A stretch of DNA of 64,000 nucleotides from Candidatus Poribacteria bacterium (GTDB lineage: Bacteria; Poribacteria; WGA-4E; WGA-3G), in assembly GCA_965198235.1 (NCBI GenBank), contig OZ240248.1, positions 3,136,001 to 3,200,000 of the forward strand, given 5' to 3'. A program made the position numbers and the translations under genes. Each line of letters starts with the position of its first letter. Within the stretch, counting starts at the first letter, position 1. The notes below the pieces were generated by a model. It saw only the letters and a program-made list of their open reading frames with translations, searched no databases and was not told where the DNA came from. Below are positions 6,151 to 51,840 of this stretch, piece by piece.

Positions 6151-6226
6151 CCCAGTCGCGTCGGAATTAATCGGAAACCATCATGTTTCGTAGAAATATG
6201 ATGCGCGGAGGCCCCATAGTTAAAAA
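6151..6226 (+). repeat. MITE-like terminal arm abutting the cdsA start
   Basis: cccagtcgcgtcggaattaa...ccatagttaaaaa immediately before ATG. Confidence 0.7.
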
Positions 6227-7057
6227 ATGTTTTGGCGGCGAGCCTTGAGTGTGGTTGTGCTGGTACCGTTAGTCCTCCTAATTGTTTATACGGGGGATTG
6301 GCTCTACCTGATACTTGTATCTGTCGCCGTGGTGATGATGCAAGTCGAGTACTGTCGTTTAGCACAGCACTTCACGGAAAAATTGAATCCAGTGATACCG
6401 GCACTCTTGACAGGTGTGTTCTGTTTATTCGCGTATTTTTTGCCTGCACTTACACAGACAGCGTCTGCCTCGACGGTAATATTCAGTTACTTTACCTTCG
6501 TATTCATTTATATTTTCGCAGAAAGTATTTTTAGGGCGAAGGTCGCCGGTGAATTGCTCGCTGTCACGCTGAAGCTAACCGGTATTTTAACGATCGGTTG
6601 GGCATTAGGCTACCATCTCATCTTGCTCCGAAATGCGGAACCAATCGGTAGGCAACTTATTTTCCTATTGGCTGGAATCATTTGGTGTAGCGATACCGGC
6701 GCGTATCTTGTTGGCAGAGCGTTCGGTAAACACAAACTCGGCACGCCAGTCAGTCCACGAAAGACGATTGAGGGGACTATTGGTGGATTGGTTGTAGGCA
6801 CTTTGACGAGTTTCCTGCTGAGTGCAATCCTTCTCAAAGGAACGCTCTCTTGGGGGAACGCCGTCTTTATTGGACTCCTACTGAGCGTTTTGGGACAACT
6901 TGGAGATCTCAGTGCCTCTCTGATGAAGCGAACTGCTGGTGTTAAGGACTCCGGACACGTTATCCCTGGACACGGTGGATTCATTGATAGGTGCGACAGC
7001 CTAATTTTTAGCACACCCGTGCTCTATTACTATCTGGCATTGACGGGACACTTTTAA
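6227..7057 (+). CDS. cdsA: phosphatidate cytidylyltransferase
   Basis: SDTGAYLVG, SPRKTIEG, GDLSASLMKR..GVKDSG..IPGHGGFIDRCDS. Confidence 0.95.
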   Translation: MFWRRALSVVVLVPLVLLIVYTGDWLYLILVSVAVVMMQVEYCRLAQHFTEKLNPVIPALLTGVFCLFAYFLPALTQTASASTVIFSYFTFVFIYIFAESIFRAKVAGELLAVTLKLTGILTIGWALGYHLILLRNAEPIGRQLIFLLAGIIWCSDTGAYLVGRAFGKHKLGTPVSPRKTIEGTIGGLVVGTLTSFLLSAILLKGTLSWGNAVFIGLLLSVLGQLGDLSASLMKRTAGVKDSGHVIPGHGGFIDRCDSLIFSTPVLYYYLALTGHF

Positions 7058-7237
7058 ACTATTAACTCTGGGCGTTGTTCCACTTCGTTTCACAACGGTT
7101 TTTGGTGAAGTCTAACCGTCTCTGGATGATGAGCGGATAAAAAGTCTTAAAAACTGTACATTTCCCCGGTCGCGTTGGAATTAACCAGACACCATCGTGG
7201 AACGATGTCCAGGGACCCATAGTTAAAAGTTAAAAAA
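7052..7237. mobile_element. MITE-like element with ~60-bp imperfect terminal inverted repeats filling the cdsA-dxr spacer
   Basis: Left arm TTTTAAACTATTAACTCTGGGCGTTGTTCCAC...TGGTGAAGTC; right arm reads TTTTAACTATGGGTCCCTGGACATCGTTCCACGATGGTGTCTGGTTAATTCC on the reverse strand. Confidence 0.65.
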
Positions 7238-8398
7238 ATGAAGCACATCGTCATACTTGGTAGCACGGGTTCTATTGGGAAGAATACCCTCAGCGTTGTT
7301 GAAACGCATGCTGACGAATTTAAGGTAGTCGGTCTCGCAGCGAACCGGGATGTTGATACCCTTGAACAACAGATTCGGCGGTATCGTCCTGCGTTGGTGG
7401 CTTTAAATGAACCCAAAGCAGCGGCACAACTCCGAGAACGAATCCGAGATCTCAACTGCACACAAGTGCTCGCTGGCACCGAGGGGCTTGAAGCCGTAGC
7501 GACGATGCCGCAAGCGTCCCAAGTCCTGGATGGAATGGGCGGGAGTGCAGGTTTGCTACCGACTTTGGCAGCGATTAACGCCGGCAAGGACATCGCTTTT
7601 GTAAATAAAGAGGTAATGGTGATGGCAGGACCTCTTGTTAATGCGGCTGTCCAAAAGAACGGTGTTAATTTGATACCGATAGATGGTGAAATGAGTGCCA
7701 TTTTCCAATGCTTGGAGGGCACACGCGACCAGCAGACAGATATCCATCGACTCCTGATTACTGCGTCAGGAGGACCGTTCCGAGAGGTGCCGAAAGAGAC
7801 ACTCTATTCCGTCACACCACAGCAAGCACTCCGGCACCCAAATTGGAAGATGGGACAGAAAATAACAATCGACTCCGCAACAATGATGAACAAAGGACTG
7901 GAGGTCATTGAGGCGAAATGGTTGTTTGATATAGAACTCTCGAAGATTGACATCGTCGTTCATCCGGAGAGTATTGTCCATTCTATGGTGGAATGGACAG
8001 ATGGCTCCACACTCGCACAACTGGGACCCACAGATATGCGTATTATGATCCAATACGCTTTAACCTATCCCCGTAGACTCTCAACACCAGTGCCACGTTT
8101 GGATTTGATGGAGGCACGCACACTACACTTTGAACCGGTTGACTTTGAGAAATTTCCATGCCTCTCACTGGCGTATACCGCCGCAGAAGTCGGGGGCACA
8201 CTCCCTGTAGTGCTCAGTAGCGCAGATGAGGTGGTCGTAGCGGCTTTTCTTGATACATGCATCGGATTTATGGATATTCCCGCGATCCTCGCGCGTGTGA
8301 TGGATGAGCATGAGGTGATCACTGACCCAACACTTTCGGATATCCTTGAGGTTGACCGGTGGGCAAAATCAACAGCACATTCAATAATAAAAAAATAA
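7238..8398 (+). CDS. dxr: 1-deoxy-D-xylulose 5-phosphate reductoisomerase
   Basis: LGSTGSIG, TASGGPF, HPNWKMGQKITIDSATMMNKGLEVIEA. Confidence 0.97.
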   Translation: MKHIVILGSTGSIGKNTLSVVETHADEFKVVGLAANRDVDTLEQQIRRYRPALVALNEPKAAAQLRERIRDLNCTQVLAGTEGLEAVATMPQASQVLDGMGGSAGLLPTLAAINAGKDIAFVNKEVMVMAGPLVNAAVQKNGVNLIPIDGEMSAIFQCLEGTRDQQTDIHRLLITASGGPFREVPKETLYSVTPQQALRHPNWKMGQKITIDSATMMNKGLEVIEAKWLFDIELSKIDIVVHPESIVHSMVEWTDGSTLAQLGPTDMRIMIQYALTYPRRLSTPVPRLDLMEARTLHFEPVDFEKFPCLSLAYTAAEVGGTLPVVLSSADEVVVAAFLDTCIGFMDIPAILARVMDEHEVITDPTLSDILEVDRWAKSTAHSIIKK

Positions 8399-8418
8399 CA
8401 CACGATCTAATAAACTTT

Positions 8419-8464
8419 GTAGGGGGTTTTTGCTTGGGTATTTTCCCAGGTCTTGTGCCTGCCC
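8419..8464. repeat. GTAG REP with modular insert
   Basis: gtagggg-gtttttgcttgggtattttcc-caggtcttgtgcctgccc versus the unexpanded gtaggggcaggtcttgtgcctgccc at 16626. Confidence 0.75.
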
Positions 8465-8491
8465 ATAATAAAAAAAGAGGTAATAAACATC

Positions 8492-10180
8492 ATGGAATTC
8501 TTCGTTGACCTGATTGGCTCCATTATTCCGTACATCAAAACGGCGTTTCTCGCCATTATTCCTCTCGGATTTATTATTTTTATTCATGAACTCGGTCATT
8601 TTTATGCCGCGAAACGGTGTGGTATTAAAGTAAACACCTTCTCCCTCGGCTTCGGTCCGAAGCTCATTGGATTTCAGCGAGGTGAAACAGAATATAGAAT
8701 CTCACTATTGCCATTTGGTGGCTATGTTCAAATGGAAGGCGAGAGTCCAACCGAGCAAACCGGTGCACCGGGTGAATTCGCGAGTGCCCCGATCGGCAGT
8801 CGCGCGTTTGTCGCCGCCGCGGGTCCCGCGGTGAATCTCTTGTTTGGCGTGTTGGTATACTGGCTTGTCTTTGCGACTGGGATTAACACGGATTCCGCCC
8901 GGTTAATCGGTGGATTAACAGGCTTACCTCTCGGTGAAAAAGAGGCAATTCAGATCGGATGGGTTGCTGATGATGGACCCGGCGCGCTGGGTGGGATAAT
9001 GCCTGGCGATACAATTGTTTCCGTCAATGGTGCCCCGATTAGCCATTGGGCGATGTTCCAAACAAGGATTTTCACCAGTGCGAATAAACCGCTTGATCTC
9101 GTTGTGGAACGCGATGGTGAACGCAAATTCCTCTCTGTTAAACCCGATGCTGAGCCGAGTGTCAGAGGAGATATAGGTATAATTCGGGTGAGTAGTAGAA
9201 CCGAGACGATCGTCAGTCATATCGAAGAAGGAAGTCTCGCGGCACAAATGGGGGTCCAAATCGGCGACCAAATTGAAAGCATCAACGGTAAAAAACTCCA
9301 CAACGTTCCGTATTTTGGGTATGGTGTCTGGCACGCTTCCGAAGATTGGCGTAATGAGAAATATCAGGCACTTTATCAAAGTATTAACGAAAACCAAGAA
9401 GCGTTGACACTCGGTATCCGCCGTGGTGATGAGACGCTCACGCTCGAACTGCCGGTACGCTGGCGTGTGAAGGCGAGTATCCAAGAGGATAGCATCGCAC
9501 AAAACGTTGGGATTCAAGATGGGGACGTGCTTGTGACGCTTAACGGGATGTCAGTAGACAATGCAACGCTCTACTCGGAACTCAAGACGATGGCAAGTCA
9601 ACCGATCGAAGTCGGATTGATGCGAGAGGGTAGCCTGAAAAAAGTAACACTCGCCTCAGAGATTCAAAGCCCAGAGGCTGATACCGACGGAGCATTCTTT
9701 GGATTGGCGTGGCAGACCTCCTTAAGTGGGATGGAATTCGCTGCAAAAACAGCACCTTTTCCAGATTATAACTTTTTTACAGGGTTCGGGAAAGGCGTTG
9801 AAGCAACGTGGTTGACGTTTACAACTGTCGGCAGAACCTTGCAACAGTTGGTAGGTGGGGAGGTGTCCCCGAAACATCTCGCCGGTCCAATCGGTATCGC
9901 GAACGCCACGAGTCGTATGTTTGACCGGGTCGGGTTGAGTAGTGTTCTCTTTTTTATTGGATTCATTAGTATCAATCTTTGCATCGTCAATCTGTTACCG
10001 ATTCCGATTGCTGACGGGGGGCAGCTACTGTTTTTTGCTGTTGAGAAAATCCGTGGCAGACCCATGCCTCGGAGAGCACAAGAAGTTGTTCAACAGGTTT
10101 GTATTGTTCTCTTGATTGCGCTCTTCCTGTACATCACGTGGTTCGATGGGATGTCCCTGATTCACGATCTACGCAATTAG
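8492..10180 (+). CDS. rseP: RIP metalloprotease RseP with multiple PDZ domains
   Basis: HELGH, AGPAVN, NLLPIPIADGG; three PDZ-like GD-I/L segments; GAGGT RBS before ATG 8492. Confidence 0.93.
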   Translation: MEFFVDLIGSIIPYIKTAFLAIIPLGFIIFIHELGHFYAAKRCGIKVNTFSLGFGPKLIGFQRGETEYRISLLPFGGYVQMEGESPTEQTGAPGEFASAPIGSRAFVAAAGPAVNLLFGVLVYWLVFATGINTDSARLIGGLTGLPLGEKEAIQIGWVADDGPGALGGIMPGDTIVSVNGAPISHWAMFQTRIFTSANKPLDLVVERDGERKFLSVKPDAEPSVRGDIGIIRVSSRTETIVSHIEEGSLAAQMGVQIGDQIESINGKKLHNVPYFGYGVWHASEDWRNEKYQALYQSINENQEALTLGIRRGDETLTLELPVRWRVKASIQEDSIAQNVGIQDGDVLVTLNGMSVDNATLYSELKTMASQPIEVGLMREGSLKKVTLASEIQSPEADTDGAFFGLAWQTSLSGMEFAAKTAPFPDYNFFTGFGKGVEATWLTFTTVGRTLQQLVGGEVSPKHLAGPIGIANATSRMFDRVGLSSVLFFIGFISINLCIVNLLPIPIADGGQLLFFAVEKIRGRPMPRRAQEVVQQVCIVLLIALFLYITWFDGMSLIHDLRN

Positions 10181-10429
10181 CGGTCAGCTGTCAGTTGTAG
10201 GAGCGAGTTGTGCTCGCGATTGTAGAGATTTTCGTTTAGAAGCAACCTCTTGTGACTGACTACTAACAATCGGTAACCGCTTCCTCCTATGGCGTAGAAA
10301 AATCGGACATCTCGTGAGGCTTCCGGTACGAAATCTTCTTAATTGTTCATGTTCCCATTCACGCTGGAATTGACCAAACACCATCGTGGAACGTAGTGGA
10401 ACGATGCTCAGATTCCTATAGTTTAAAAT
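10180..10429. repeat. REP, heptamers and MITE arm abutting the udg start
   Basis: gtaggagcgagttgtgctcgcgat; ...ccatcgtggaacgtagtggaacgatgctcagattcctatagtttaaaat then ATG. Confidence 0.7.
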
Positions 10430-11149
10430 ATGGATAGAGACAGCCTCAAAAAAGATTATGTAGAACTTGTTGCAAGTGTGAGGGAATACGTGGAAGAACA
10501 ACTTCAACTCGGTTTCATAGAATCAGAACTAAGCGAACCTGAGCAGGAATCGCCCTACGCGAACCTTGATCTACCCGCGCTGGCGACCGATGCCGCGGGT
10601 TGCACCAAATGTCCGTTGCACGAAACACGGAATAGTGTCGTTTTTGGTGTCGGCAACACGAACGCTGACCTTATGTTCATCGGTGAAGCGCCGGGGGCTG
10701 ATGAGGATCAGCAGGGCGAACCTTTTGTCGGTAGAGCCGGTCAATTGCTGACACAAATCATTGAGGCAGGGATGAAACTCAAGCGCGAGGATGTCTATAT
10801 CACCAATGTGCTTAAGTGTCGTCCCCCGGGCAACAGAAACCCTGAATCCGATGAGGTCGAAACCTGTAGCCCTTATTTGGTGCGTCAGATAGAACTCATT
10901 CAGCCGAAGGTGATTGTGGCACTCGGAAGTTTTGCTGCACAGATGATGCTTGGGACAAAAATCGGTATTACAAAACTCCGCGGGGAGTTCCATGCGTGTA
11001 ATGTAGCAGGACTCCGCGTCCTTCCACATAGGAAACCACCAATGGTCATGCCGACATTTCACCCGGCGTATCTGCTCAGAAACCCGAATGCCAAACGTGA
11101 CGTGTGGGAAGACGTTAAAAAGGTGCTTGCTTTTTTAGCAGATTTTTAA
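10430..11149 (+). CDS. udg: uracil-DNA glycosylase family 4 (Fe-S)
   Basis: [41 protein letters not shown]. Confidence 0.92.
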
Positions 11150-11421
11150 ATAATTGGCCTCCGCGCTGTGCTCCATTACATTCCGCACAGGTCTCTGATT
11201 TGTTCAGCTACGTTTCACGATGGTTTATAGTCAATTTTGCGGCGTACTCGCCCATAAGCGATCTGCTTCAAGGGAGACTGAACCCCGTAGGGTGTTTTTG
11301 CTTGGGGTTTTTGATAGGGTGTTTCTGCGGATTTTTGTGGATTTCTTCAAAATCTCTGTAGGGGAACAACGCCCAGATTCAATAGTTTAAAATATGACCA
11401 GATTCAATAGTTTAAAATATG
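11143..11421. mobile_element. MITE-like element with nested modular REP filling the udg-priA spacer
   Basis: Left arm contains the udg TAA; C/A modules at 11287-11348; right arm unit ccagattcaatagtttaaaatatg duplicated (11373-11396, 11398-11421). Confidence 0.65.
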
Positions 11422-13988
11422 CAAACATCGCTTTTCCGTTATCGGTCGATCAAGTATTCACCTACGGTGTACCGCCGCAGATGGATGCAGTTTTACAACT
11501 CGGAACCCGGGTGTTAGCACCTTTCCGTGGGACAAATCAGGAAGGGATTGTCGTTGAACGACTCGATGAAACCGATCTTGATCCTGATGTTATCAAGAAT
11601 ATTTCCAACTGCCTTGATGAAACCCCGACCTTCTCTACGGATTTGCTCGCGCTGACCAAATGGATGGCGGAATATTATGTCTGCTCGTGGGGTGTCGCGC
11701 TCTTTTGTGCTGTGCCGGCTGCTGTGCGAACGCAGAAAGAACAGAAGGTACGGCTCTTGTCAGGAGCACCTACACCGCAAGGAAAGGTGCAAAAGGAACT
11801 CGTCGCACTTTTGGAAGCAGAGGGTGAGCTGTCTCTCAATCAACTTGCCCGACGTGTTGGTGTAAGTTACCAGAATCTCCGTCCGAGGATTACCGCGCTA
11901 AAAGAAAAAGGTATCGTTAGCCTTGATGTCACCCACAAACCGAAAGCCAACACGCAGTTAACCTCTGTAGCAACTTTAGCTTTACCGCCAACTGATATTG
12001 AAGCGGAAATTGATCGACTCAGAGGTGAGGCGGACGGTTCCGAAGATTCATCTGGTTCCCGACCGAACAATCGTCGGCACGTTGCCGCTGCTAAGCATGC
12101 CGAAATTCTGCAACTCTTGCTTGATGAAGGTGCCCCTTTGGCGACAGCCGGCCTAACCAAACGGGTGAATGCCAGCATCTCACTACTCCGCACACTTGAA
12201 AGACGTGGCTTTGTTCATATCACACGTGCACAAGCCGTTCGTAATCCCTTGAGTTCTGAACCGATCGCTGCAACACAGCCGCTTCACTTGAACTCTGCAC
12301 AATCGATGGCGTTCGCGGAGATTCAAAATATACTCGTTCCACATACGATGGACGCGTCATTTTTTCCTGCTACTGAACGTCCGCTTACCTTTCTGCTCCA
12401 CGGCGTAACCGGGAGTGGAAAAACCGAGGTCTACATGCAAGCAATGACAGAAGTTCTTGGAAACGGGAAAGCTGTCATCGTATTAGTGCCAGAAATATCG
12501 CTCACACCTCAGACTGCCTCCCGATTTGTTGGGCGATTCGGGGAACGGGTGGCGTTGCTGCACAGCCGATTGAGTGATGGGGAACGCCATGATCAGTGGC
12601 ATCGTATCCAAAAGGGTGAAGCGGACATTGTGATTGGACCGCGTTCTGCCGTCTTTGCCCCAGTGAAAGAACTGGGTATGCTGATTATAGACGAAGAGCA
12701 TTCGGATTCCTATAAGTCAGATACCGTCCCGCGTTACCACGCACGGGATGTCGCGCAGAAGCGGGGTGAACTCGCAAACTGTCCTGTTCTACTTGGGAGC
12801 GCGACACCGTCCCTTGAGAGTTTTCATCGTGCGAAAAATGGGCGTTATCGGCTTCTCAGTCTGCCAGACCGTGTTCTTAATAGAAAAATGCCCGATGTTC
12901 ACATTGTTGATATGCGGACTGAATTGAAAAAGGGCAACAGGACTATCTTCTCCGATGTCCTCCGAAGTTCGATTGAAGAACGATTGGAAAGGCGAGAACA
13001 AATTATCCTATTTCTCAACAGACGTGGGCATTCTACCCATGTGTTTTGCCGGACTTGTGGTTATGTCGAACGCTGCGAAAATTGCTCTATCTCATTGACT
13101 TTTCACTTTGAGACGAAACTTCTCGTTTGTCACCACTGCGGTGATAAACGTCCGACACATCCGACCTGCCCGCAGTGTAGCAGCCCTGCCATTCGATATT
13201 TTGGGTTGGGGACAGAGGCGGTTGAACAAGAGGTGAGGAAAGCGTTCCCACAGGCACGTGTGAAGCGATTTGATGCCGATTCAACTGCACGGAAAAACGC
13301 ACATCAGCAGATTTTGGGGACATTTGAGCAGCAGAAGATTGATATTCTGATAGGCACACAAATGGTATCAAAAGGGTTAGACTTCCCGAATGTCACGCTT
13401 GTCGGGGTCATCGCCGCGGATACCAGTTTGAATCTACCCGACTTTCGGGCGGGTGAACAGACGTTTAGCCTGTTGACACAGGTCGCTGGACGTTCGGGAC
13501 GCGCCGAGCTTGAAGGGAAGGTCGTCATTCAGACCTATATGCCTGAGCACTACTGTATTTCTGCCGCGCAAAAGCACGACTATCTCGGTTTCTATGCGCA
13601 GGAGGTTGAAGCACGCGGCGCGTTACGATATCCACCTTTCTCGCATGTCGGGACGCTTCTGCTCCGTGGCAAGGATGAGAAACAGGTTGAAGAGGCTGCG
13701 CATGCTGTCCGAGATCAACTTCAGATTTGGCTGACAGGTCAAGCACCTGCCGATCAGCCAGATGAGAAAGAAGACGATGTTGGAGGGACCGCAGTAGAAA
13801 TCCTCGGTCCCGCGCCAGCACCGCTCTCGAAAATCGAAGGAAAATTTCGGTGGCATTTTTTACTTCGAAGCAGCTCCGTTGAAAGAATCAGTCAACTTCT
13901 TAAGCAATTAACTGATGAGCCACCTGTCGCTATTAAATCGAATGCTATTGAGTTTGTGATAGACATCGATCCAACGAGTATTCTATAG
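11394..13988 (+). CDS. priA: primosomal protein N' (replication restart helicase)
   Basis: GVTGSGKTEVY, DEEH, four CxxC pairs, QVAGRSGR, IDIDP terminus. Confidence 0.97.
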   Translation: MTRFNSLKYANIAFPLSVDQVFTYGVPPQMDAVLQLGTRVLAPFRGTNQEGIVVERLDETDLDPDVIKNISNCLDETPTFSTDLLALTKWMAEYYVCSWGVALFCAVPAAVRTQKEQKVRLLSGAPTPQGKVQKELVALLEAEGELSLNQLARRVGVSYQNLRPRITALKEKGIVSLDVTHKPKANTQLTSVATLALPPTDIEAEIDRLRGEADGSEDSSGSRPNNRRHVAAAKHAEILQLLLDEGAPLATAGLTKRVNASISLLRTLERRGFVHITRAQAVRNPLSSEPIAATQPLHLNSAQSMAFAEIQNILVPHTMDASFFPATERPLTFLLHGVTGSGKTEVYMQAMTEVLGNGKAVIVLVPEISLTPQTASRFVGRFGERVALLHSRLSDGERHDQWHRIQKGEADIVIGPRSAVFAPVKELGMLIIDEEHSDSYKSDTVPRYHARDVAQKRGELANCPVLLGSATPSLESFHRAKNGRYRLLSLPDRVLNRKMPDVHIVDMRTELKKGNRTIFSDVLRSSIEERLERREQIILFLNRRGHSTHVFCRTCGYVERCENCSISLTFHFETKLLVCHHCGDKRPTHPTCPQCSSPAIRYFGLGTEAVEQEVRKAFPQARVKRFDADSTARKNAHQQILGTFEQQKIDILIGTQMVSKGLDFPNVTLVGVIAADTSLNLPDFRAGEQTFSLLTQVAGRSGRAELEGKVVIQTYMPEHYCISAAQKHDYLGFYAQEVEARGALRYPPFSHVGTLLLRGKDEKQVEEAAHAVRDQLQIWLTGQAPADQPDEKEDDVGGTAVEILGPAPAPLSKIEGKFRWHFLLRSSSVERISQLLKQLTDEPPVAIKSNAIEFVIDIDPTSIL

Positions 13989-14169
13989 ACATATCACCCT
14001 TACGGGGTTTTAATCTGAATAAAGAGAAATGTTTAAACATCATTCTTTTTAAGCACTCTAACGGAGTGCCATATTTATCTAACCTTCCGAGACTAAAACC
14101 CAATCCTTTAGGTTTGGGATACAGTCTCGCCGTTGTGAATTAGACCAGGGGTCTCTGTTAAAAAAAGAC

Positions 14170-14198
14170 TTGACTTTCGGTGAAAAATGTGGTATAAT
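14170..14198 (+). promoter_or_regulatory. sigma70 promoter for tnpB
   Basis: TTGACT-17 nt-TATAAT with an extended -10 TG. Confidence 0.7.
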
Positions 14199-14295
14199 TA
14201 AAGTATCAAGTTGGCAGACATGAACAGCGTAACCGCAAGGTTACGTGTCTGCCTACCCACTGTTCAGGGGTTAAGAACTTGAAACTTGAGATACC

Positions 14296-15507
14296 ATGCG
14301 AAACACCACACATAAACTTTTTCGTGATACCTCTTTGAAGCATCTCCAGGATGACCTGAATATCTGTGGCGTTGTTCGGAATCATTTCAATGCGTTGTCT
14401 CGGCGATATTACCGTCGGTATGGTAAGGACTTGTCGTATTCCAAGATGTCGAAACATTTGACGCGGCTGAAAAAGCTTGAGAAATACCAACATTGGAATA
14501 TCCCTTACGCGTGGAGTCTTCAGAATATGCTCAAACGCTTGGCACAGAGTTTCAAAGAAATGAAAACACTTGGCAGAGGTCACCCGAAGTTCAAGAAGTG
14601 CAAGAAACACAAAGGGATGACGTTCTCTGGTGAACAAGTTGCGTTGGAGAAAGTGCTTGACGCGCAGAAGAACGAAAGAAACCACCCGACCTATAAGATA
14701 AGACTGAATGGACGTTGGTATCGTTTCGCGTTGCACCGTGAAATACAAGGTGCTATCAAACAGTTTCATGTTAAGAGGGACGCACTCGGAGATATGTATA
14801 TTACGCTGACAGAAGACTATACCGAAATTAAAATTGAACCCAAGACGGGTCAAGCTGAAGGGTTTGATTTTGGTATCAAAGACTTCCTGACTGGCAGTGA
14901 TGGTCATAGATATACGTCTCCAATGTTCTACAAACTCAACGCTGAAAAGTTGGCGGAAGCACAAAAGGTATATTCCCATAAAGTCAAAGGTTCTCGGAAT
15001 CTCGAACGAGAACGTAAGAACGTTGCCCGTATCCATAAGAAAACGGCGAATCAAAGGACAGACCACCACTATAAACTTGCTATAAAGTTGTGTCGGCAGT
15101 TTGATATCCTGTTCTTTGAAGACCTCAACCTTCGCGGTATGAAAAAACTTTGGGGTCAACAGGTATCTGACCTCGCCTTCGGTGAGTTTCTGCAGAAGCT
15201 GAAACACCAGAGCAAAAAGCGTATCCGTTCTGTGCTGAAGATTCATCGCTGGTCGCCGACCACAAAGTGCTGTTCTGTTTGTGGACATAAAAATCAAAAC
15301 CTCACGCTATCAGATAGAGACTGGACGTGTCCAAAGTGTGAGACACACCTCGACCGCGACGAGAACGCTGCTATGAACATTCTTAAGGAAGGGGTAGCTT
15401 CCTTTGGGTTAGGAGTTGTAAGACCTATTGTTTTGTTTAACAAAATCGTAGGCACCTCCGTTGAATCGAACCATCCGATTCTGAATTCCACAAATGCTTC
15501 TGCTTAA
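14296..15507 (+). CDS. tnpB: RNA-guided endonuclease TnpB
   Basis: RuvC triad GFDFG / FEDL / DRDENAAMNI and CSVC..CPKC zinc ribbon. Confidence 0.95.
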   Translation: MRNTTHKLFRDTSLKHLQDDLNICGVVRNHFNALSRRYYRRYGKDLSYSKMSKHLTRLKKLEKYQHWNIPYAWSLQNMLKRLAQSFKEMKTLGRGHPKFKKCKKHKGMTFSGEQVALEKVLDAQKNERNHPTYKIRLNGRWYRFALHREIQGAIKQFHVKRDALGDMYITLTEDYTEIKIEPKTGQAEGFDFGIKDFLTGSDGHRYTSPMFYKLNAEKLAEAQKVYSHKVKGSRNLERERKNVARIHKKTANQRTDHHYKLAIKLCRQFDILFFEDLNLRGMKKLWGQQVSDLAFGEFLQKLKHQSKKRIRSVLKIHRWSPTTKCCSVCGHKNQNLTLSDRDWTCPKCETHLDRDENAAMNILKEGVASFGLGVVRPIVLFNKIVGTSVESNHPILNSTNASA

Positions 15508-15565
15508 TGATTGCAGAAGCCCAAGTCTTTAGGCTTGGGTCTATCACAGTATCTAAAAGATCCGT
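15350..15565 (+). ncRNA. putative TnpB omegaRNA (reRNA); guide begins at 15548, 5' boundary approximate
   Basis: Established TnpB architecture: RNA overlaps the tnpB 3' end and right-end hairpin, and the guide comes from the flank (AGTATCTAAAAGATCC...). Confidence 0.55.
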
Positions 15566-15656
15566 ATAGGATGATCGGGAATCTGCGCGAAACATTGTCC
15601 CGCAAGCCTCTATAGGCTTGCGCAAGGAGCGCAGCCCAGGAGGCCATAAATTAAAA

Positions 15657-16616
15657 ATGGGTAACCGGATATTTGACAAACTTGCTGATACTGACTTACT
15701 TGCACATAGCCCGATTCTGGTTTTTGCTGCCGATCCACTCGCATCTGCCGGGATTAAGGGGCTCGGACAAGTACAACACCCGAAACCGCACTACCGAACA
15801 CACGCAGAGTTTTTGCAACTCCAGCGCGACCTCGTTGCAGATGGCCAGTTGGACGGGCTCCTGATGACACCCGCTGATGCGGAAATCCTTGCACTTGAAG
15901 AAAATCTGTTTGAAGACACGCCGATTACGCCAATCGTCCGGATGAACTCGGAGACGGCTATCTGGAATCCGAGGTTTGGCATCTATACCTCGCGGCTGTC
16001 GATGCCGTTTCAAACCGTGTTTCCAGAGGACATGCAGCGCTATTGTGAGGCACTCATCGGTCCCGCACTTGAATGTCGAGTCAACCTTGGGTTGTATTCC
16101 ATTACGCTCAACAACGATCCGATCGCTGATGAGCGAATGTTACAAGCGTATGTGCAGTTCGCACACGTCGTCGGTGAAATCGAGGGATTCGATCATCTCT
16201 TAGAGGTGTTTTTACCGAATATAAAAATGCCGGGAATGGATGAGGAGAAACGGGGCATGTATGTCGCCGATTCTATCGTCCGAACGATGAGTTATCTCCG
16301 AAAACACCAACGCCCGCGTTTTATCAAAACGGCATATACGACCGCCGAAGTCTGGATCGAGTTGTGCCAGTTCGACACGACGCTGGTGATCGGCGCATTG
16401 GGGGGTCCCCGTCAAAATGCGCGTAGCACATTTGCACTTGCGCACAATGTTGTCAGCAACGGCGGACGCGCTACCCTATTCGGGCGCACCATCTTCGGTG
16501 AAGATGAACCGATCGGCTTTGTGCAGTGCCTGCGGCGCGTCCTTGATGGTGAGGATGATCCACAGAATGCCCATGCGGAGTATCAGAAATTGTTACGAGG
16601 TTCCCGGACGGGTTAG
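15657..16616 (+). CDS. class I aldolase-like TIM-barrel protein
   Basis: HLLEVF, RFIKTAY (candidate Schiff-base Lys), ALGG, TLFGRTI phosphate-binding motif. Confidence 0.55.
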   Translation: MGNRIFDKLADTDLLAHSPILVFAADPLASAGIKGLGQVQHPKPHYRTHAEFLQLQRDLVADGQLDGLLMTPADAEILALEENLFEDTPITPIVRMNSETAIWNPRFGIYTSRLSMPFQTVFPEDMQRYCEALIGPALECRVNLGLYSITLNNDPIADERMLQAYVQFAHVVGEIEGFDHLLEVFLPNIKMPGMDEEKRGMYVADSIVRTMSYLRKHQRPRFIKTAYTTAEVWIELCQFDTTLVIGALGGPRQNARSTFALAHNVVSNGGRATLFGRTIFGEDEPIGFVQCLRRVLDGEDDPQNAHAEYQKLLRGSRTG

Positions 16617-16625
16617 CGACATCCC

Positions 16626-16786
16626 GTAGGGGCAGGTCTTGTGCCTGCCCGCATGTAGGGCTTAAAAATCACATATCCCCAGTCGCGTCGGAATTAACCA
16701 GACACCACCGTGAAACATAGGGGAACGGTGACCAGATTCGATAGTTTAAAAAATGGAACGATGCCCAGATTTAATAGTTTAAAAAA
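16626..16786 (+). repeat. GTAG REP plus MITE arm with duplicated terminal unit
   Basis: gtaggggcaggtcttgtgcctgccc; cccagtcgcgtcggaattaaccagacacc...ccagattcgatagtttaaaaaa...ccagatttaatagtttaaaaaa. Confidence 0.7.
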
Positions 16787-18203
16787 GTCGTTAGAAGAAT
16801 CGCGTGTCCTCCTGCTCCTTCCGACACGGACTTACCGAGCGACGGATTTCCTTGAAGCAGCCCTGAAGTTGAACGTAGAAGTAATTGTTGCATCGGAGGA
16901 AGCGGCGACGACAGCAGACCTATCGCCGCGACATACACTCGTGCTCGACTTCAGCGCGCCAACTGCCGCAACACAGACAATTGTTGAATTTGCCGAAACT
17001 TATCCGATCGCAGCAATAGTTGGTGTTGATGATGATACAACGCTGCTCGCAACGGCTGCGTCAGAGGCGTTAGGGCTCCCGCACAACCCGGTTAATTCCG
17101 CAAAAGCGACACGCAACAAGTATCTCTTGCGGCACACATTGGCGACAAACGGAGTGTCGGTGCCTGCCTATCAACGCGTTTCCATTGAAGACGATCCTGC
17201 CGAGATAGCCGCAAAACTTTCGGAAGCACGCCATCACGATGATAGTGATCGCGGGACTTCCGAAGGTACAGATACGCTTCCCCCACAACATCTACTTTCG
17301 CAAAAGCAAAGCACTTCACCAGATACCACTGTGGGAGGGGTTTGTAACCCCGATTTCTGTAGTGGAAGGGTGCCCAGACCTAATAAATTAAAAATCAGTT
17401 TTCCATGTATTATCAAGCCGTTGTCCCTCTCCGCCAGCCGCGGGGTCATCAGGGCAGACACACCTGCCGAATTCATCGAAGCCTTCCAGCGGACAACGAA
17501 ACTCCTGCATGCCTTACAAGAATCCACGGATCCTCCCGCACAATATCTACTCGTTGAGGACTATATTCCGGGCATAGAAGTGGCATTGGAGGGTATCCTG
17601 TTAGACGGTGAGTTGAAGACACTCGCGCTTTTCGATAAACCCGATCCACTGGAAGGTCCCTTTTTTGAAGAGACCCTCTATGTTACACCTTCCCGTCTGT
17701 CGATGAAGGTTCAAGGGGCATTGCATCGGGCAACTGCGGAGGCTGCTGACGCTTTAGGGTTAAGACATGGACCGATCCATGCCGAACTGCGCTATAATGA
17801 TAAAGGTGCGCACCTTATTGAGATCGCTGCTCGGACGATTGGTGGACTCTGTGCCAGGACACTGCGGTTCGGAACAGGGATGTCGCTTGAGGAACTCGTT
17901 ATTCGACATGCGATCGGGCAGCAGGTGGAAGAATTACAGCGTGAACAGCAGGCAGCAGGTGTAATGATGATCCCTGTACCGAAGGCGGGTATCTTGGGCG
18001 AGGTGCGTGGTAAAACGGCGGCGCATTGTGTAGACGGAATCGTGGAGGTCAACATCACAATCCCTATTGGTGGGGAGGTTGTTCCACTGCCGGAGGGCGC
18101 GCGGTATCTCGGTTTCATTTTCGCTCGTGCTGAAACACCGGAGGCGGTGGAATCGGCATTGCGTGAAGCGCATCGACAATTGGAATTTGTAATTTTAGCG
18201 TAG
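16761..18203 (+). CDS. ATP-grasp domain protein (L-amino acid ligase-like) with a repeat-derived insertion
   Basis: TRNKY, IIKPLSLSASRGV, VEDYIPG.E, HAELR, IEIAAR; start uncertain (GTG 16710 or ATG 16761, both inside the repeat). Confidence 0.8.
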   Translation: MPRFNSLKKSLEESRVLLLLPTRTYRATDFLEAALKLNVEVIVASEEAATTADLSPRHTLVLDFSAPTAATQTIVEFAETYPIAAIVGVDDDTTLLATAASEALGLPHNPVNSAKATRNKYLLRHTLATNGVSVPAYQRVSIEDDPAEIAAKLSEARHHDDSDRGTSEGTDTLPPQHLLSQKQSTSPDTTVGGVCNPDFCSGRVPRPNKLKISFPCIIKPLSLSASRGVIRADTPAEFIEAFQRTTKLLHALQESTDPPAQYLLVEDYIPGIEVALEGILLDGELKTLALFDKPDPLEGPFFEETLYVTPSRLSMKVQGALHRATAEAADALGLRHGPIHAELRYNDKGAHLIEIAARTIGGLCARTLRFGTGMSLEELVIRHAIGQQVEELQREQQAAGVMMIPVPKAGILGEVRGKTAAHCVDGIVEVNITIPIGGEVVPLPEGARYLGFIFARAETPEAVESALREAHRQLEFVILA

Positions 18204-18326
18204 GAGAGGGTTGTTTATCGTATTTTTCGCTGGCGAGGTTTCCTTGAGGAAATCCCCAAGCAAAACCCCTATCAAAAACACCTCGCCACCTCCAATCCGG
18301 TAGATGCGGTTTCTAACCGCACCGAA
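18200..18326. repeat. REP cluster with modular insert
   Basis: cgctggcgaggtttcc...ccccaagcaaaacccctatcaaaaacacctcgcc; gtagatgcggtttctaaccgcaccg. Confidence 0.7.
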
Positions 18327-18358
18327 ATTATAGGCTTTACAATATTTGGCATAATGCT

Positions 18359-25470: not shown

Positions 25471-25615
25471 CAGTGGAAATGTGCTTGTGTACTTGTACAT
25501 TTTAAGTTGATAAATTTTTAACATCTGTGGTATGATAAAATCAGAGTTGAGATTGTGCAATGCTGCTTACCGAGCAACCTCGTACCATCCTCCCTGCTAC
25601 ACGGAATAAATAGCC

Positions 25616-27571: not shown

Positions 27572-27573
27572 AT

Positions 27574-37034: not shown

Positions 37035-37053
37035 TACGCTCACGCATTTTAAT

Positions 37054-38918: not shown

Positions 38919-39040
38919 AATCGGGGGAATCCGTAGAGGAAACACCCTATCAATACGCAGAAATACCCAAGCAAAAACACCCCAAGCAATACGCAGAAAC
39001 ACCCTATCAAAAACACCCCCAGCAAAAACACCCCTCCTAC
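38919..39040 (-). repeat. GTAG REP whose loop carries ~100 nt of shuffled C/A-rich modules
   Basis: Arms AATCGGGG...ACCCCTCCTAC of the REP AATCGGGGTTACAAACCCCTCCTAC enclose modules CACCCTATCAA, TACGCAGAAA and CCCAAGCAA. Confidence 0.8.
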
Positions 39041-39921: not shown

Positions 39922-39970
39922 GAAGACCTCCTGAAATCGATTCGCAAGCGTTGCGAATTTCGCGTCACAG

Positions 39971-45127: not shown

Positions 45128-45404
45128 TTTTTTAATTATTGGGTTTCTGCTCCGATTGGTCTTACAGCCCAATCGGGTTTTCGATGCATTTTTGAGGCAT
45201 CGGTGGTGATTAAAGGGTTTAAAGGCTTACCGTCAATAATATATGTGCCTTAAGGCTAATGTGTGTATTTTATGGTTTTAGTTCCGATTATAGTCTTTGT
45301 TGTGGGTCGTCTCATTTTTCTTTAAGTAATGTGAGGGGTATAGAGAACCGAGAGGTAAATGCTCCTGACTTTAGACATATAGGATTGCTTGTTCGGCGCG
45401 CCTG

Positions 45405-45500
45405 CCGAGCGAGGTATTTCTGCGGATTTCTCCGGGGGTCTCGCTGGTAGGGGTTGGTTAACCCAACCCCTACTGGTAGGTGTGCGATTGGAGGTCGCAC
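45405..45500. repeat. REP cluster with modular insert
   Basis: gcgaggtatttctgcggatttctcc; gtaggggttggttaacccaacccctac; gtgcgattggaggtcgcac. Confidence 0.65.
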
Positions 45501-46378: not shown

Positions 46379-46458
46379 TTTTTAACTATGAGCCTCTGGA
46401 CATTGTTCCACTACGTTCCACAATGGTTTCTGGTTAATTCCAACGCGACTGCTGATGG

Positions 46459-46761
46459 CTATTCTTCTGACTGCTGACCGCCATTCTTTGTGTCAACCAG
46501 CGAAATAGAATCGACGATGCCAACGATGGCAACATCGACCGGCATCCGCTTACCCGGGATGACACTGACTGCATCGCCACCGGTAACGAAATAGACGGTT
46601 TCACCAACGCCTGCGTCGTGTAGCGTATCCACAGCGACGAGTGGTTCAGAAATGGGGTTGCGTTTCTCGTCTAAGGGTTGCACGATGAGGAGACGTGAGC
46701 CTTCTAAGCTCGGGTCTTTTCGTGTTGCGACGACGGTTCCAATAACTTTTCCTAAATCCAT
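46459..46761 (-). CDS. eutN: bacterial microcompartment vertex protein (EutN/CcmL family)
   Basis: GKVIGTVVATRKD, VAVD...AGVGETV, PVDVAIVGIVD. Confidence 0.93.
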   Translation of the reverse strand: MDLGKVIGTVVATRKDPSLEGSRLLIVQPLDEKRNPISEPLVAVDTLHDAGVGETVYFVTGGDAVSVIPGKRMPVDVAIVGIVDSISLVDTKNGGQQSEE

Positions 46762-46815
46762 TTTTTTAAACGATAGCCTCTTGCTCTCAGCTTAGGTGTT
46801 AATAGTTTAAAATCA

Positions 46816-48237
46816 TCATGAAACGAGATTGTACTCAACAAGTTTTGTATGGAGCGTATTCCGGTTAATGCCGAGGATATCTGACGCTTTACTCCGATTT
46901 CCTTTGGTGTGCTCAAGCACGATTTTAAAGAGCGGCTTCTCAAAGATCGCTCGGATTTCAGCATAAAGCTCATCTGGCGATGTTTCGGACTCCATATAGT
47001 GTTGAACGTACGTTTGAAGCAGATTATAAATTTGTACGTCAAGATTTCCCGGCTCACTGGCAGGGGTCGATTTTTCGAGTATCGGATCGAAATGCTCGGG
47101 CAATAACATTTGTCCTGAGCACATCACGAGTGCTCGCTTGATTGCGTTCTCTAATTCGCGCACGTTCCCGGGCCACTCATGAGTCGTGAGAAGTTTAGCA
47201 ACTTCCGCGGAGATGCCGATTTCGGAAAGTTGGTATTCTTCGATGAACCGACGCGCGAACAAATCTATGAGTTCTGATATGTCCTCTTTTCGTTCTCGGA
47301 GAGGTGGCAAGGAGATGGGAATGACGTTGAGACGATAGTAGAGGTCCTCCCTGAAGGCTTTCTGCTCAATCGCGGTTTCAAGCCGTCGGTTGGTTGCAGC
47401 GATGATTCTGACATCGACAGCGTGGATCTCGGTTCCGCCCATCGGTTCGACCTCTCGTTCTTGGAGGACGCGCAACAATTTCATCTGAACTTCAATCGGC
47501 AGTTCTCCGATTTCATCGAGGAAGATGGTCCCGCTGTCTGCTTGTTGGAATTTTCCCTTCCTTGCGGTGTGCGCATCGGTATACGCACCTTTGACGTGTC
47601 CAAAGAGCGCACTTTCGATAAGACTCGAAGGCATGGCACCGCAATCGACGACGACGAACGGATTGTCGGCTCGGTCGCTGTTTTGATGGATGAGTTGGGC
47701 GACAAGTTCTTTACCTGTGCCGCTTTCACCGAAAACGAGGACGGTTTCGTCACTGACAGCGGCGCGTCCAATCTTATGGTAGACCTCCTGCATTGCCGGA
47801 CTCTGCCCGACCATTCTCCCCTGTCCCTCAACATCAATGGAGGTTGTGGATGTCTTGACGTTTTTCGTTTGGTTGCTGGCATCTGCAGCGCGCGAGACGA
47901 GGTCGAGCAAGTGCCGCTGATCGATCGGTTTTGTGAGGTATCCGTAGGCGCGTTGCTTTGCTGCGTCAATGGCAGTCTGTGTGGTTCCGTGTGCCGTGAT
48001 TATAATAATCGAGGCGGTGTTATTGTAACCCTGAATGTCCTCGATGAGTTCAATTCCGTTGGCATCCCCTAACCAAATGTCGAGCAGAATGACATCAACG
48101 TTCGTTTTCTTGATACAGGCAAGCGTCTCCGCTCCATTTCGGGCTTTTAGCGTCTCATAGCCTGCCCTCTGGAGAGTAGCGGCGAGTATTTGTCGGAGGC
48201 TGTCGTCATCGTCAGCGATAAGCACAAAATTTGACAT
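46816..48237 (-). CDS. sigma54-dependent response regulator (NtrC family)
   Basis: Receiver DDD/D/K, GESGTGKE, GAYTDA loop, FLDEIGE, WPGNVREL, Fis-type HTH. Confidence 0.92.
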   Translation of the reverse strand: MSNFVLIADDDDSLRQILAATLQRAGYETLKARNGAETLACIKKTNVDVILLDIWLGDANGIELIEDIQGYNNTASIIIITAHGTTQTAIDAAKQRAYGYLTKPIDQRHLLDLVSRAADASNQTKNVKTSTTSIDVEGQGRMVGQSPAMQEVYHKIGRAAVSDETVLVFGESGTGKELVAQLIHQNSDRADNPFVVVDCGAMPSSLIESALFGHVKGAYTDAHTARKGKFQQADSGTIFLDEIGELPIEVQMKLLRVLQEREVEPMGGTEIHAVDVRIIAATNRRLETAIEQKAFREDLYYRLNVIPISLPPLRERKEDISELIDLFARRFIEEYQLSEIGISAEVAKLLTTHEWPGNVRELENAIKRALVMCSGQMLLPEHFDPILEKSTPASEPGNLDVQIYNLLQTYVQHYMESETSPDELYAEIRAIFEKPLFKIVLEHTKGNRSKASDILGINRNTLHTKLVEYNLVS

Positions 48238-48442
48238 TTTTTTAATTATTAAATCTGGTCACCGTTCCAAATGTAAAGCAAAGACAAATTATGCCATTTA
48301 AGGAAACCTAATTTCATTTCACGGTGGTGTCTGGTGAAGTCAGAAACCTTTCAGCACCTGGAGCTGGTTGGAATTCACCGATTCCCATAGTTAGCAAATC
48401 ATTTCATAGGGGTTTCTGGTAGTCGGTGCTATGGATATATCT

Positions 48443-50014: not shown

Positions 50015-50140
50015 TCTTTTAATTATTGAGTTTTCGTTCCGTTTTGTCCCCCCTTCCCAGTAACGGGTGAGGACCCCTGTCCAAAACGGGTTTTCGATAA
50101 ATTTATGCTATCATTGTAATGAATTAGCGGCTTTCTTTAG

Positions 50141-50761
50141 TTAAAGGGTCAAAAAGTTATTGAGCATCTTTAACCCGACGCGCCCACTTTTTTCAAGGTG
50201 GAACTGTGTTGCAATGAGATTATCGTGAGCAATCGCACTACAGAATTCAAGTCCATACTTCGTCCTTCCGATTATGATGTCCTCTGTCTCTGGCTCAGGA
50301 TAGTAGGAATTGACGAAATAGAAGTGTGCGGGGTTCGGAACACCTTCAAAGATTGCGTGCGGTTTTGTCTGATACACTTCGTTCCAACCGATTTGCGGGA
50401 CCTTTAGTGTCTCGGTTTGTGTTTCTGTATCAGTCGCTGGATATTTCTTTACACATCCCGGTAGCAGATTTAAGCATTCGGCATCCTCTTCCTCACTGTG
50501 TTCAAAGAGGATCTGGATACCGATACAGATACCGAGCATAGGTTTGCCGGTACGGAAGAAGTCTGCGAGGACCTGGTTCAATCCGCGTTTCTGCAACGTT
50601 TGCATCGTGGCTTTTGCGGCACCGACACCGGGAAAAATAATACGTTCAGCGTCGAGTATCGTTTCTGCGGTGGATGTAATCTCGTTTTTATAACCGAGGT
50701 GTGTCAAGGCTCTCGCAACACTCGTAAGGTTCCCCGCTTCGTAATCTATAATTGCAATCAT
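50141..50761 (-). CDS. hisH: imidazole glycerol phosphate synthase glutamine amidotransferase subunit
   Basis: IIDYEAGNL, PGVG, GICIG, VPQIGWN, QFHLEKS. Confidence 0.95.
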   Translation of the reverse strand: MIAIIDYEAGNLTSVARALTHLGYKNEITSTAETILDAERIIFPGVGAAKATMQTLQKRGLNQVLADFFRTGKPMLGICIGIQILFEHSEEEDAECLNLLPGCVKKYPATDTETQTETLKVPQIGWNEVYQTKPHAIFEGVPNPAHFYFVNSYYPEPETEDIIIGRTKYGLEFCSAIAHDNLIATQFHLEKSGRVGLKMLNNFLTL

Positions 50762-51015
50762 ATTTTTAACTCTTAACTCTGGGCATCGTTCCATTACATT
50801 CCACGATGGTTCCTGGTGAAGTCAGAAACCTTTGAGCCCCTGGAGCAGTTTAACCCTCACCTCGCCTCCGTTATAAATGTTAAAGCACGAGTGTTTTTGC
50901 TTGGGGTTTTTGCTTGGGTGTTTCTGCGGATTTCTTCGATGGTTAACAGATTCCCAGAGTTAGAAAATTTCACGGTGGTTTCTGGTGTAGGAGTGAGGTC
51001 ACCTCGCCCTTACGA
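50762..51015. repeat. MITE arm, C/A modules and GTAG REP
   Basis: atttttaactcttaactctgggcatcgttcc...; gtgtttttgcttggggtttttgcttgggtgtttctgcggatttcttc; gtaggagtgaggtcacctcgcccctac. Confidence 0.7.
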
Positions 51016-51042
51016 CTGGATTATAAAAGATTTCTTAACGAT

Positions 51043-51522
51043 TCAGATTCCGGTTTTGTCAATCGCTTTATGAAGGTTAACTGTCTCAATTCCTGCGATA
51101 GCGGCTTCAGAGCCTTTGTTTCCTGCCTTGATGCCGGCGCGCTCAAGTGCTTGTTCTATGGTATCTGTGGTGATGACGCCGTAGATAACAGGGATGTTGG
51201 TGCTGGAGGATATGTTAGCGATTCCCTTCGCGCTTTCGGCGGCGACATAATCAAAATGGGGGGTCGCACCTCGGATAACAGCACCGAGGCAGAGGACAGC
51301 ATCATAGCGTTCGCTTTCTGCGAGACGTTTGGCAATTCCCGGAATTTCGAAGGCACCGGGGGTCCAGAAAACATCGACAGTGTCCAAGTCGACACCGTGC
51401 CGTTTCAGGGCATCCAGCGCACCCGCAAGGAGTTTTTCAGTAACGAAACTATTGAATCGACTGACGACAATACCGAATGTGAGACCTTCACCGAGGAGAT
51501 GTCCTTCATAAACGTTTGGCAT
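51043..51522 (-). CDS. ribH: 6,7-dimethyl-8-ribityllumazine synthase
   Basis: [31 protein letters not shown]. Confidence 0.97.
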
Positions 51523-51840
51523 TTTTTAATTTATGGCTCCTGGTCTGTTTTTTAATCATGGTACTCCTGGACTGCTCTCCACTTCGTTACGAGCAGGTTC
51601 TTAGTGAATTGCACGTTCCTTCAACCTGCCATATTCCCTTTATCAGCGGGCAGTCGGACGTAGGGTTCACCGAGAACCCCCGCGTAATGTAATGGAGCGG
51701 TGCACAGGTGGCTATAGTTAGAAAATTTCGCGCAGGTTTTCGGTTAATTCGCGACTGGATTTAGGAATCTGTTCGCGATTTATAACTTGGTTATGCTTTT
51801 CTAATTTTCCGTGCCGTTCCTTGCTGATGGTTCCCGACGG

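Follow-up and report, generated by a model that had tools for sequence, protein, structure and literature searches.

A palindromic repeat whose A-rich tail ends at start codons in the genome of a sponge-associated Candidatus Poribacteria bacterium

The DNA analysed here (the window) is a stretch of 64,000 nucleotides (nt) from the genome of a Candidatus Poribacteria sponge symbiont (5.17 Mb in two contigs, C1 and C2, with 48% G+C). Its genes include cdsA, dxr, udg, priA, a gene named as an aldolase, an ATP-grasp ligase gene, a C25 peptidase gene, two eutN genes, genes of an NtrC-type regulator and a histidine kinase, hisH and ribH, and copies of a short repeated element, the subject of this work, lie at their boundaries (Table 1). 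A preliminary description of this DNA had placed a common end motif against the ATG of 12 of these genes (all of the above except the ATP-grasp gene), and the motif was indeed present directly upstream of the ATG in 12/12, in canonical form ([C/A/T]ATA[G/A][T/A]T followed by an A-run) at nine and as a variant at three (at dxr the motif is set back by 9 nt and GTTAAAA is duplicated, at the second eutN gene it reads ATCGTT and at hisH AAGAGTT). The gene names are backed by Pfam in 11 of the 12 cases, the "aldolase" having no Pfam match at 1e-5, and since the Pfam domains begin at residues 1-5 of the products of cdsA, dxr, both eutN genes, the NtrC-type regulator gene and hisH, these are true starts. 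Because the tail of the repeat fills positions -13 to -1, none of the docked genes has a Shine-Dalgarno (SD) sequence at normal spacing, as had been noticed; the SD is clear at rpsB and tsf and weaker at rseP. The complete copies (a doublet at 7051-7237 and a composite at 11143-11396) and the mini copy (46762-46813) were found as described.

A repeat search of the window yielded several repeat families that derive from one common unit, the arm, present in both orientations. Searching the genome by nhmmer with a hidden Markov model (HMM) of the repeat (threshold E up to 0.01), used instead of a rigid hairpin regular expression that matched only 24 sites, gave 402 arms, 192 on the + strand and 210 on the - strand, at densities of 0 to 26 per 100 kb, the window lying in the second-densest bin (23). 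The arm is about 75 nt long and has a short 5' part, a hairpin and a tail of some 30 nt that ends in CATAGTTAAAAAA, the tail consensus being CCCAGGAGCC-CATAGTTAAAAAA. A docked start was defined as an ATG opening an open reading frame (ORF) of at least 100 aa, and upstream of 142 such starts the order is a lead-in (..AACCAGAAACC), a 6-nt stem half, a conserved 13-nt loop region reading GAAACGAAGTGGA or GTAATGAAATGGA, the complementary stem half, CCCAGGAGCC, CATAGTTAAAAAA and then the ATG. Conservation of the tail ends at -1. At -5 to -2 its A-run is 93-100% A in all classes of copies, including 116 copies far from genes, and belongs to the element.

Among 97 close pairs of arms (less than 400 nt apart), 79 have both tails pointing outward, with gaps most often of 33-43 nt, and only 1 has them pointing inward, so that the complete form of the element is an inverted doublet some 165 nt long. 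A count made in a slightly different way gave 314 units, of which 72 are doublets and 242 are single arms, the latter carrying one end only, and the two arms of one doublet mostly have different stems. Doublets fold as long hairpins (z = -6.1 and -5.3) in which only the A-run and the AUG are left unpaired. In copy number and in the arrangement of its ends the element thus agrees with its initial characterisation as a multi-copy, inverted-repeat element resembling a miniature inverted-repeat transposable element (MITE). The arms have diverged within the genome, with a median pairwise identity of 69% and a median nearest-neighbour identity of 90%.

Regarding the position of the ends relative to genes, 106/386 arm ends have a start exactly at the ATG column of the model, opening an ORF of at least 100 aa, and 42 more have a start within -9 to +12 of that column, while at 57/386 the stop of a converging ORF (at least 100 codons) falls on the TTA of the tail (offset -7 or -8) and at 65 more a converging stop lies within -16 to +12. 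At 90 ends the start or stop is further off, and 25 have no gene boundary within 150 nt. The early observation that ends lie at both starts and stops therefore extends to the whole genome. A second census, by a regular expression for the tail that requires no ATG, recovered 539 tails, of which 147 are at starts and 66 supply a converging stop. The core hexamer ATA[AG][AT]T, counted genome-wide, precedes 317 ATGs at offset 12, compared with 125-202 at the other offsets from 6 to 20, and at 142 of these an ORF of at least 100 aa begins; taken by itself, the exact 11-mer is a weak signal (4 matches against 1.16 expected, 4 being reached in 1/100 shuffles). As a null for targeting, TTAAAAA-type 7-mers outside arms in non-coding or boundary DNA were used (n = 1532), of which 148 stand directly before a start and 127 supply a stop. 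Arm ends exceed these free sites both at starts (115/386 vs 148/1532, odds ratio (OR) 4.0, p = 2e-21) and at stops (OR 1.9, p = 2e-4). The preliminary description had named AT-rich intergenic targeting as the explanation to be excluded, and arm ends are docked far more often than such targeting predicts. What sets the element apart is its tail, which in over 100 genes reaches precisely to -1 of the ATG, far in excess of the target-availability null.

The docked arms are unevenly distributed among gene junctions. Start-docked arms follow a co-directional gene in 100/106 cases (median distance 210 nt) and face a divergent gene in 6, compared with 3037 co-directional and 1075 divergent junctions for all genes (n = 4112; p = 9e-8), and the 72 doublets are flanked by a stop and a start in 47 cases, by two stops in 10, by two starts in 2 and by a side without a gene boundary in 13. 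The elements are intercistronic or lie behind a gene and avoid promoter regions. Two other patterns were considered and set aside: genes bracketed by arms at both ends, as in a cassette, are too weakly enriched (10 observed, 4.4 expected), and a comparison of arm orientation with the direction of replication was given up because the cumulative GC skew does not form a clear V.

The hairpin consists of a 6-bp Watson-Crick stem, three purine-purine oppositions, an A-T pair, a C-G or T-A pair and a G-N-A triloop. In 40 high-scoring arms, chosen with a maximum of three per stem type and without pairing as a criterion, 99.1% of 320 stem cells are paired, 86 with double-sided changes, a result matched by 0/500 shuffles; slid control alignments pair at most 60%, and RNAalifold independently yields the same eight pairs. 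The inner pair around the G-N-A triloop is C-G in 28 and U-A in 12 of these arms, and C-GNA-G mini-hairpins are unusually stable as DNA. Across 282 arms, with 84 stem variants, 1573/1692 cells are Watson-Crick and G-T (24) is not commoner than A-C (31), nor is there such an asymmetry in start-docked (6 vs 8), stop-docked (8 vs 10) or far arms counted separately. A constraint on RNA of one sense would be expected to permit G-U but exclude A-C, so this symmetry suggests that the palindrome is kept as DNA, and stem pairing points to a DNA-level palindrome rather than an RNA motif. The test for a structured cis-regulatory RNA, G-U tolerance in the transcribed sense, failed across the arm classes, and Rfam gave 0 matches at the gathering score in the whole window and 0 at E up to 5 in 5000-18000. 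Stem mismatch is 6.6% in far copies and 3.4-4.2% in docked copies.

The distribution of the arm family was assessed with a covariance model in samples of 26 congeneric genomes and 34 genomes of five other genera. Arms were present in 26/26 congeners, with 1 to at least 78 copies (lowest in genomes G017 and G047, 1-2), in 4/27 genomes of a second genus (1-2 weak matches per genome) and in 0/7 genomes of the four remaining genera; judged from these samples, the family is confined to one genus. Compared with the congener G035, whose genes are about 88% identical and which was the main reference for spacers, nearly all spacers are non-homologous, and homology returns at stop codons and at the A-run that precedes the ATG. 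The hisH arm is orthologous and conserved in G035, and the ribH stem differs by one compensated pair. At the dxr locus, examined in the 80 best relatives of the Dxr protein (Poribacteria or sponge-type metagenome-assembled genomes, identity up to 97%), arms precede dxr only in L001, L002 and L024, a bare tail of 22-25 nt lies between the cdsA stop and the dxr ATG in L007, L008 and L010, and other species have different repeats or short spacers. Congeners retain the A-run before the same ATGs. The elements turn over quickly between species. Before cdsA, the arm-poor genome G017 has AAGGAGG where the window genome has the tail, which appears to have replaced the SD there; the dxr and udg starts are A-rich and SD-less in all three genomes compared (including G017).

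Some arms contribute to coding sequence. The inverted arm had been said to supply the TAA of both cdsA and udg, and this is correct for udg, where the C-terminus reads ..ADF* here and ..AE* in G035 and the tail therefore supplies the last codon and the stop, and incorrect for cdsA, where TTTTAA also occurs in armless relatives (L005) and is therefore native to the gene. PriA and the ATP-grasp protein both begin MxRFNSLK, read from an arm tail (11394-11418 and 16753-16788); the priA start is 11394, the second tail being translated as the N-terminus, since the ATG at 11419 lies in another frame. G035 uses the ATG of the stem half ACGATG as start codon. The ATP-grasp ligase also has an in-frame insert of about 53 aa (17225-17399), an arm with a nested small repeat, which is absent from the G035 ortholog. 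Genome-wide, arms are read through in long frames at 9/386 (1 verified against G035 and 8 further candidates), and in 19/386 arms an ATG within the arm opens a long ORF.

Regarding the start contexts of the genome, an SD-like tetramer precedes 1315/2814 well-bounded first ATGs (about 47%) and 234/3197 internal control ATGs, at least 5 A in the last 6 positions are found at 330/2814 starts and 21/3197 controls, and the tail core at 121/2814 starts and 2/3197 controls. A-rich, SD-less starts are therefore a class native to this genome, and the tail is one source of it. By position, the tail is the translation start region of essential genes. The RNA data are assembled contigs from four metatranscriptome runs of one study, which carry no transcript starts, ends or strand, whose breaks fall on repeats and in which DNA carry-over is possible; such contigs bridge arms at 5945-6256, 6785-7096 and 15709-17231. 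Two docked ATGs have contigs starting about 50 nt downstream of them, which were not counted as evidence. Elsewhere in the genome, an arm tail lies 10 nt before the mature 5' end of tRNA-Met (C1:78021) and 18 nt before that of tRNA-Gln (C1:1634262), the latter having no canonical promoter in the 90 nt shown.

Table 1. Copies of the repeat in the window and the genes at which they end.
Feature	Position	Strand	Remark
Single arm, variant loop, tail to -1 of cdsA ATG (6227)	6150..6226	+	Too diverged for nhmmer census
Doublet left arm, cdsA TAA (7055-7057) inside tail	7051..7110	-	
Doublet right arm, short loop, duplicated GTTAAAA, to -1 of dxr ATG (7238)	7165..7237	+	
Single arm with 5' extension, to -1 of udg ATG (10430)	10331..10429	+	
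Inverted arm, tail gives udg TAA (11147-11149) and last codon	11143..11240	-	C-terminus differs from G035
3' half of arm and tandem second tail, first tail docks at priA ATG (11394)	11357..11418	+	
Arm with nested mini-hairpin in loop, tail to -1 of ATG 15657 ("aldolase")	15575..15656	+	
Arm, then tandem second 3' half, at start of ATP-grasp gene	16665..16788	+	
Arm with nested repeat in loop, in frame within ATP-grasp gene	17300..17394	+	
Tail only, at -1 of C25 peptidase ATG (45127)	45128..45150	-	
Single arm to -1 of eutN ATG (46378)	46379..46456	-	
Mini copy, two back-to-back tails, one docked at second eutN ATG (46761)	46762..46813	.	
Other tail of mini copy, stops 2 nt before regulator gene TGA (46816-46818)	46762..46813	.	
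Arm with loop insert of ~45 nt and doublet centre, tail to -1 of NtrC-type regulator ATG (48237)	48238..48369	-	
Tail only, at -1 of histidine kinase ATG (50014)	50015..50040	-	
Arm to -1 of hisH ATG (50761)	50762..50851	-	Orthologous arm kept in G035
Tail at -1 of ribH ATG (51522), then left arm of doublet nested in older arm	51523..51608	-	
Right arm of ribH doublet	51666..51725	+	

The arm loop often hosts nested inserts, either a mini-hairpin of about 31 nt or an insert of about 45 nt found in many arms across the genome; in the window such inserts lie at 15590-15625 and 48270-48320, and likewise in G035 spacers, and a whole doublet is nested inside an older arm at 51547-51726. Other repeats share the spacers. 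Short-period G/T-rich repeats (11291-11349, 18243-18287, 38952-39037, 50888-50943 and 63961-64000) often adjoin arm tails and sometimes stand in for the hairpin upstream of a tail. A further spacer-filling family, of ..CAGT/..ACTG-type periodic units forming long hairpins, is found at 1990-2030, 10181-10260 and 53076-53229 and in most G035 spacers; its end (..AACTATTAAAAA) also stands directly before ATGs in relatives, and docking may therefore be common to several families.

The genome has six Y1 transposase genes, three of IS605 type (with a tnpB-like frame downstream of two, by eye) and three RAYT-like, and 16 DDE_Tnp_1 genes. The RAYT-like genes were considered as partners of the arms and rejected, being flanked by a different palindrome family, which occurs on C1 near 606918, 1898775 and 3853757 beside these genes and in the window at 13983-14018, 56651-56737 and 60015-60189, and which is probably the classic REP-RAYT system of this genome (REP, repetitive extragenic palindromic), separate from the arms. 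The window also holds a 1.67-kb insertion (13982-15648), lacking in G035, with a 403-aa TnpB/Cas12f-like ORF (OrfB_IS605 and TNB domains), end hairpins of IS605 type and the region's sole strong sigma-70 site (14170-14198); since a contig from the RNA libraries passes directly from 13981 to 15649, alleles without the insertion exist. Segments 25474-37039 (low in G+C at 40-43%, with large ORFs, one of 1806 aa) and 55687-60497 could not be aligned with G035. On contig C2 (44 kb), which may be an assembly duplicate, stretches of C1 recur with identical sequence, among them the doublet at C1:808218 and its flanks (C2 around 32803 and 8550).

The best overall explanation of these observations, held with about even confidence, is a genus-specific, non-autonomous palindromic repeat of MITE or REPIN type (REPIN, an inverted pair of REP sequences) whose tail now serves as an SD-less, A-rich leader. 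The hairpin would serve the spread or upkeep of the element itself as single-stranded DNA, through a putative enzyme, and copies would insert or persist at boundaries of T- and A-runs, which natively are the A-run before starts and the stops made of a T-rich codon and TAA. Once docked, the unstructured A-rich tail would be a landing region for ribosomes that initiate without SD pairing on polycistronic mRNA, and because it would then be the landing region of the downstream gene, selection is proposed to keep tails at starts after the arm is lost. Domestication as a signal, suggested in the preliminary description, is plausible on these comparisons, and the 100/106 start-docked arms behind a co-directional gene speak for its "operon punctuation" component. 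A more far-reaching version can be offered only tentatively: a mobile palindrome with a portable SD-independent start region at each end may have rewired the initiation of about 3-4% of the genes of the genus (among them the essential dxr, cdsA, ribH and priA), displacing some SDs and at times donating stops, C-terminal residues and N-terminal peptides, driven by a putative enzyme that reads the DNA hairpin with the G-N-A triloop.

Several points weigh against these proposals. Neither a target duplication nor a clean empty site was found in the comparison with G035, where spacers are wholly replaced, which leaves the claimed targeting of TTAAAA/AAATG junctions without such a trace, and doublet flanks have no consistent direct repeat. 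The suggested search for an autonomous transposase or recombinase with the same ends found none among the Y1 and DDE_Tnp_1 genes, the families covered (other transposase families were not searched), or in bracketed intervals: arms flank none of these 22 genes, 20 of which have no arm within 2.5 kb, none occur at the 29 best Y1 loci of relatives (of IS200 type; RAYT loci were not fetched), and 0/58 intervals between outward tails 0.5-4 kb apart have a second copy. No pair among 233 arms is at least 98% identical, and there is therefore no sign of very recent transposition or of a burst. GGAG stands at -19 to -16 in about half of the tails, and a long-spaced SD is possible, although as a start-specific SD it was rejected, its frequency being similar in docked and undocked copies. 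The contig-only RNA data would still allow transcription to start at the ATG, the genes were delimited by crude, ORF-based models made for this analysis, and the first HMM was seeded with 39 start-docked copies, ATG columns included, which is why the census was redone with the ATG-independent expression. Against a conserved host signal speak the restriction to one genus with two congeners holding only 1-2 copies, the strand-symmetric stem pairing and the roughly 40% of ends that face the stop of a converging gene or nothing.

A purely selfish repeat with neutral docking, which inserts by TTAAAA-type sites while deletion bias trims the spacers and the tail is tolerated without selection, would fit the frequent occurrence of free 7-mers themselves at starts and stops, the A-run already present before armless orthologous genes and the near absence of the family from two congeners. 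The somewhat higher stem mismatch of far copies is what plain age differences would also give, and multi-copy sequence (matching at least 3 other intergenic segments) makes up 25% of intergenic bases, against 0.7% of length-matched coding controls. Start docking at four times the free-site rate and the persistence of bare tails at starts make this explanation rather unlikely, and targeting alone does not predict that arms are nearly excluded from divergent junctions.

Punctuation of operons at the RNA level, in which the doublet hairpin reaching from stop to A-run is processed by RNase III or RNase E or stabilises the cistrons, as for Correia and ERIC elements, appears improbable. In its favour, doublets fold into long hairpins in which nothing but the A-run and AUG is unpaired, and 47/72 doublets lie between a stop and a start. 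Against it, 242 of the 314 units are single arms unable to form the long hairpin, the two arms of a doublet usually have different stems, and the covariation has no G-U tolerance in the transcribed sense. RNase III binding is reported for Correia elements in the consulted part of one source (PMC2649163), and RNA-library contigs bridge the arms, but contigs cannot reveal cleavage and may stem from DNA carry-over. A leaderless promoter module, with CATAGT as -10 hexamer, the A-run as discriminator and transcription from the ATG or 1 nt before it, is likewise improbable. The hexamer does end 7-8 nt before the A of the ATG, a spacing compatible with a leaderless start, docked starts are nearly always ATG, a tail stands before two tRNA genes, and the tail resembles the -10 hexamer and discriminator of the tRNA promoters (TATAAT or TATACT, often preceded by TG, with a TAAAA-like sequence); yet these promoters have TTGACA at 17 nt, where the arm has its hairpin loop. 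The sigma-70 scan of 5000-18000 gave 9 sites against 13.4 expected, none in a tail, about 40% of tails face the 3' end of a converging gene or nothing, arms are underrepresented at divergent junctions, which must contain promoters, and, as weak evidence, RNA-library contigs run through arms.

If the tail is indeed a transposable ribosome landing pad, the element would be a natural example of a selfish repeat that has remodelled translation initiation genome-wide, and the tail a compact SD-free leader and candidate part. In these genomes, gene callers relying on an SD will place starts wrongly, and arms inside or at the ends of genes alter N- and C-termini, which bears on annotation; the near-complete replacement of spacers between congeners makes the repeats useful as strain markers for uncultivated sponge symbionts. 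The portions consulted of two MITE reviews (PMC10969869, PMC2229807) do not mention the start codon, the Shine-Dalgarno sequence or ribosome binding, and the Poribacteria literature searched, one part of it shallowly, yielded no description of such repeats. Within this literature the docking behaviour appears to be undescribed.

Among known systems, the element has the properties of a MITE in being small, non-coding, multi-copy and bounded by terminal inverted repeats, but because the tests for a partner enzyme failed it is not assigned to a MITE or REPIN family proper. Mycobacterial interspersed repetitive units (MIRUs) and the REPs near stops in E. coli are likewise intergenic repeats of operons whose ends touch or overlap the flanking stop or start codon, MIRUs being direct tandem units with small ORFs that are not known to have hairpin arms or an A-rich tail. 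IS200/IS605 elements are not known to have inverted ends, unlike the arm doublets. They resemble the arms, whose hairpin lies some 24-30 nt from a constant end sequence, in having a subterminal hairpin. Their single-strand transposition (PMC6006769) would fit the strand-symmetric pairing of the arms, a hairpin read in single-stranded DNA; they differ in that no Y1 transposase lies beside the arms here or at the IS200-type loci of relatives. REP and REPIN elements, mobilised by RAYT transposases according to the parts consulted of the available sources (Bertels and Rainey, 2011; PMC3116915, PMC3337134), are also short palindromes in hundreds of copies, single or as inverted doublets able to form a long hairpin, extragenic, non-autonomous and kept as palindromes at the DNA level, whereas the arms flank no RAYT gene here, have a tail of about 30 nt that docks at starts and include no identical "master" copies. 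The Correia elements of Neisseria (CREE/NEMIS), whose ends create promoters and bind IHF and RNase III according to excerpts of two papers (PMC2649163, PMC2229807), are MITEs of about 100-160 bp that lie beside genes and have inverted ends affecting the adjacent gene and long stem-loop transcripts; unlike these, the arm tail fails the sigma-70 scan and ends exactly at -1 of the ATG, and no TA duplication is seen. As in the Rickettsia palindromic elements and other gene-fused MITEs, in so far as the passages used cover them (PMC10969869, PMC2229807), an arm lies in frame in the ATP-grasp gene, but in-frame arms are a small minority, the family lying predominantly at gene boundaries and outside coding sequence. 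The closest parallel for the leader itself is in Bacteroidetes, in which, in the part of the study drawn on here (Baez et al., 2019; PMC6847099), initiation is A-rich, Kozak-like and SD-independent, with unstructured A-rich sequence directly before the AUG replacing the SD; in contrast, SDs are used at about 47% of starts here, and the A-rich leader comes from a repeat rather than from a general rule.

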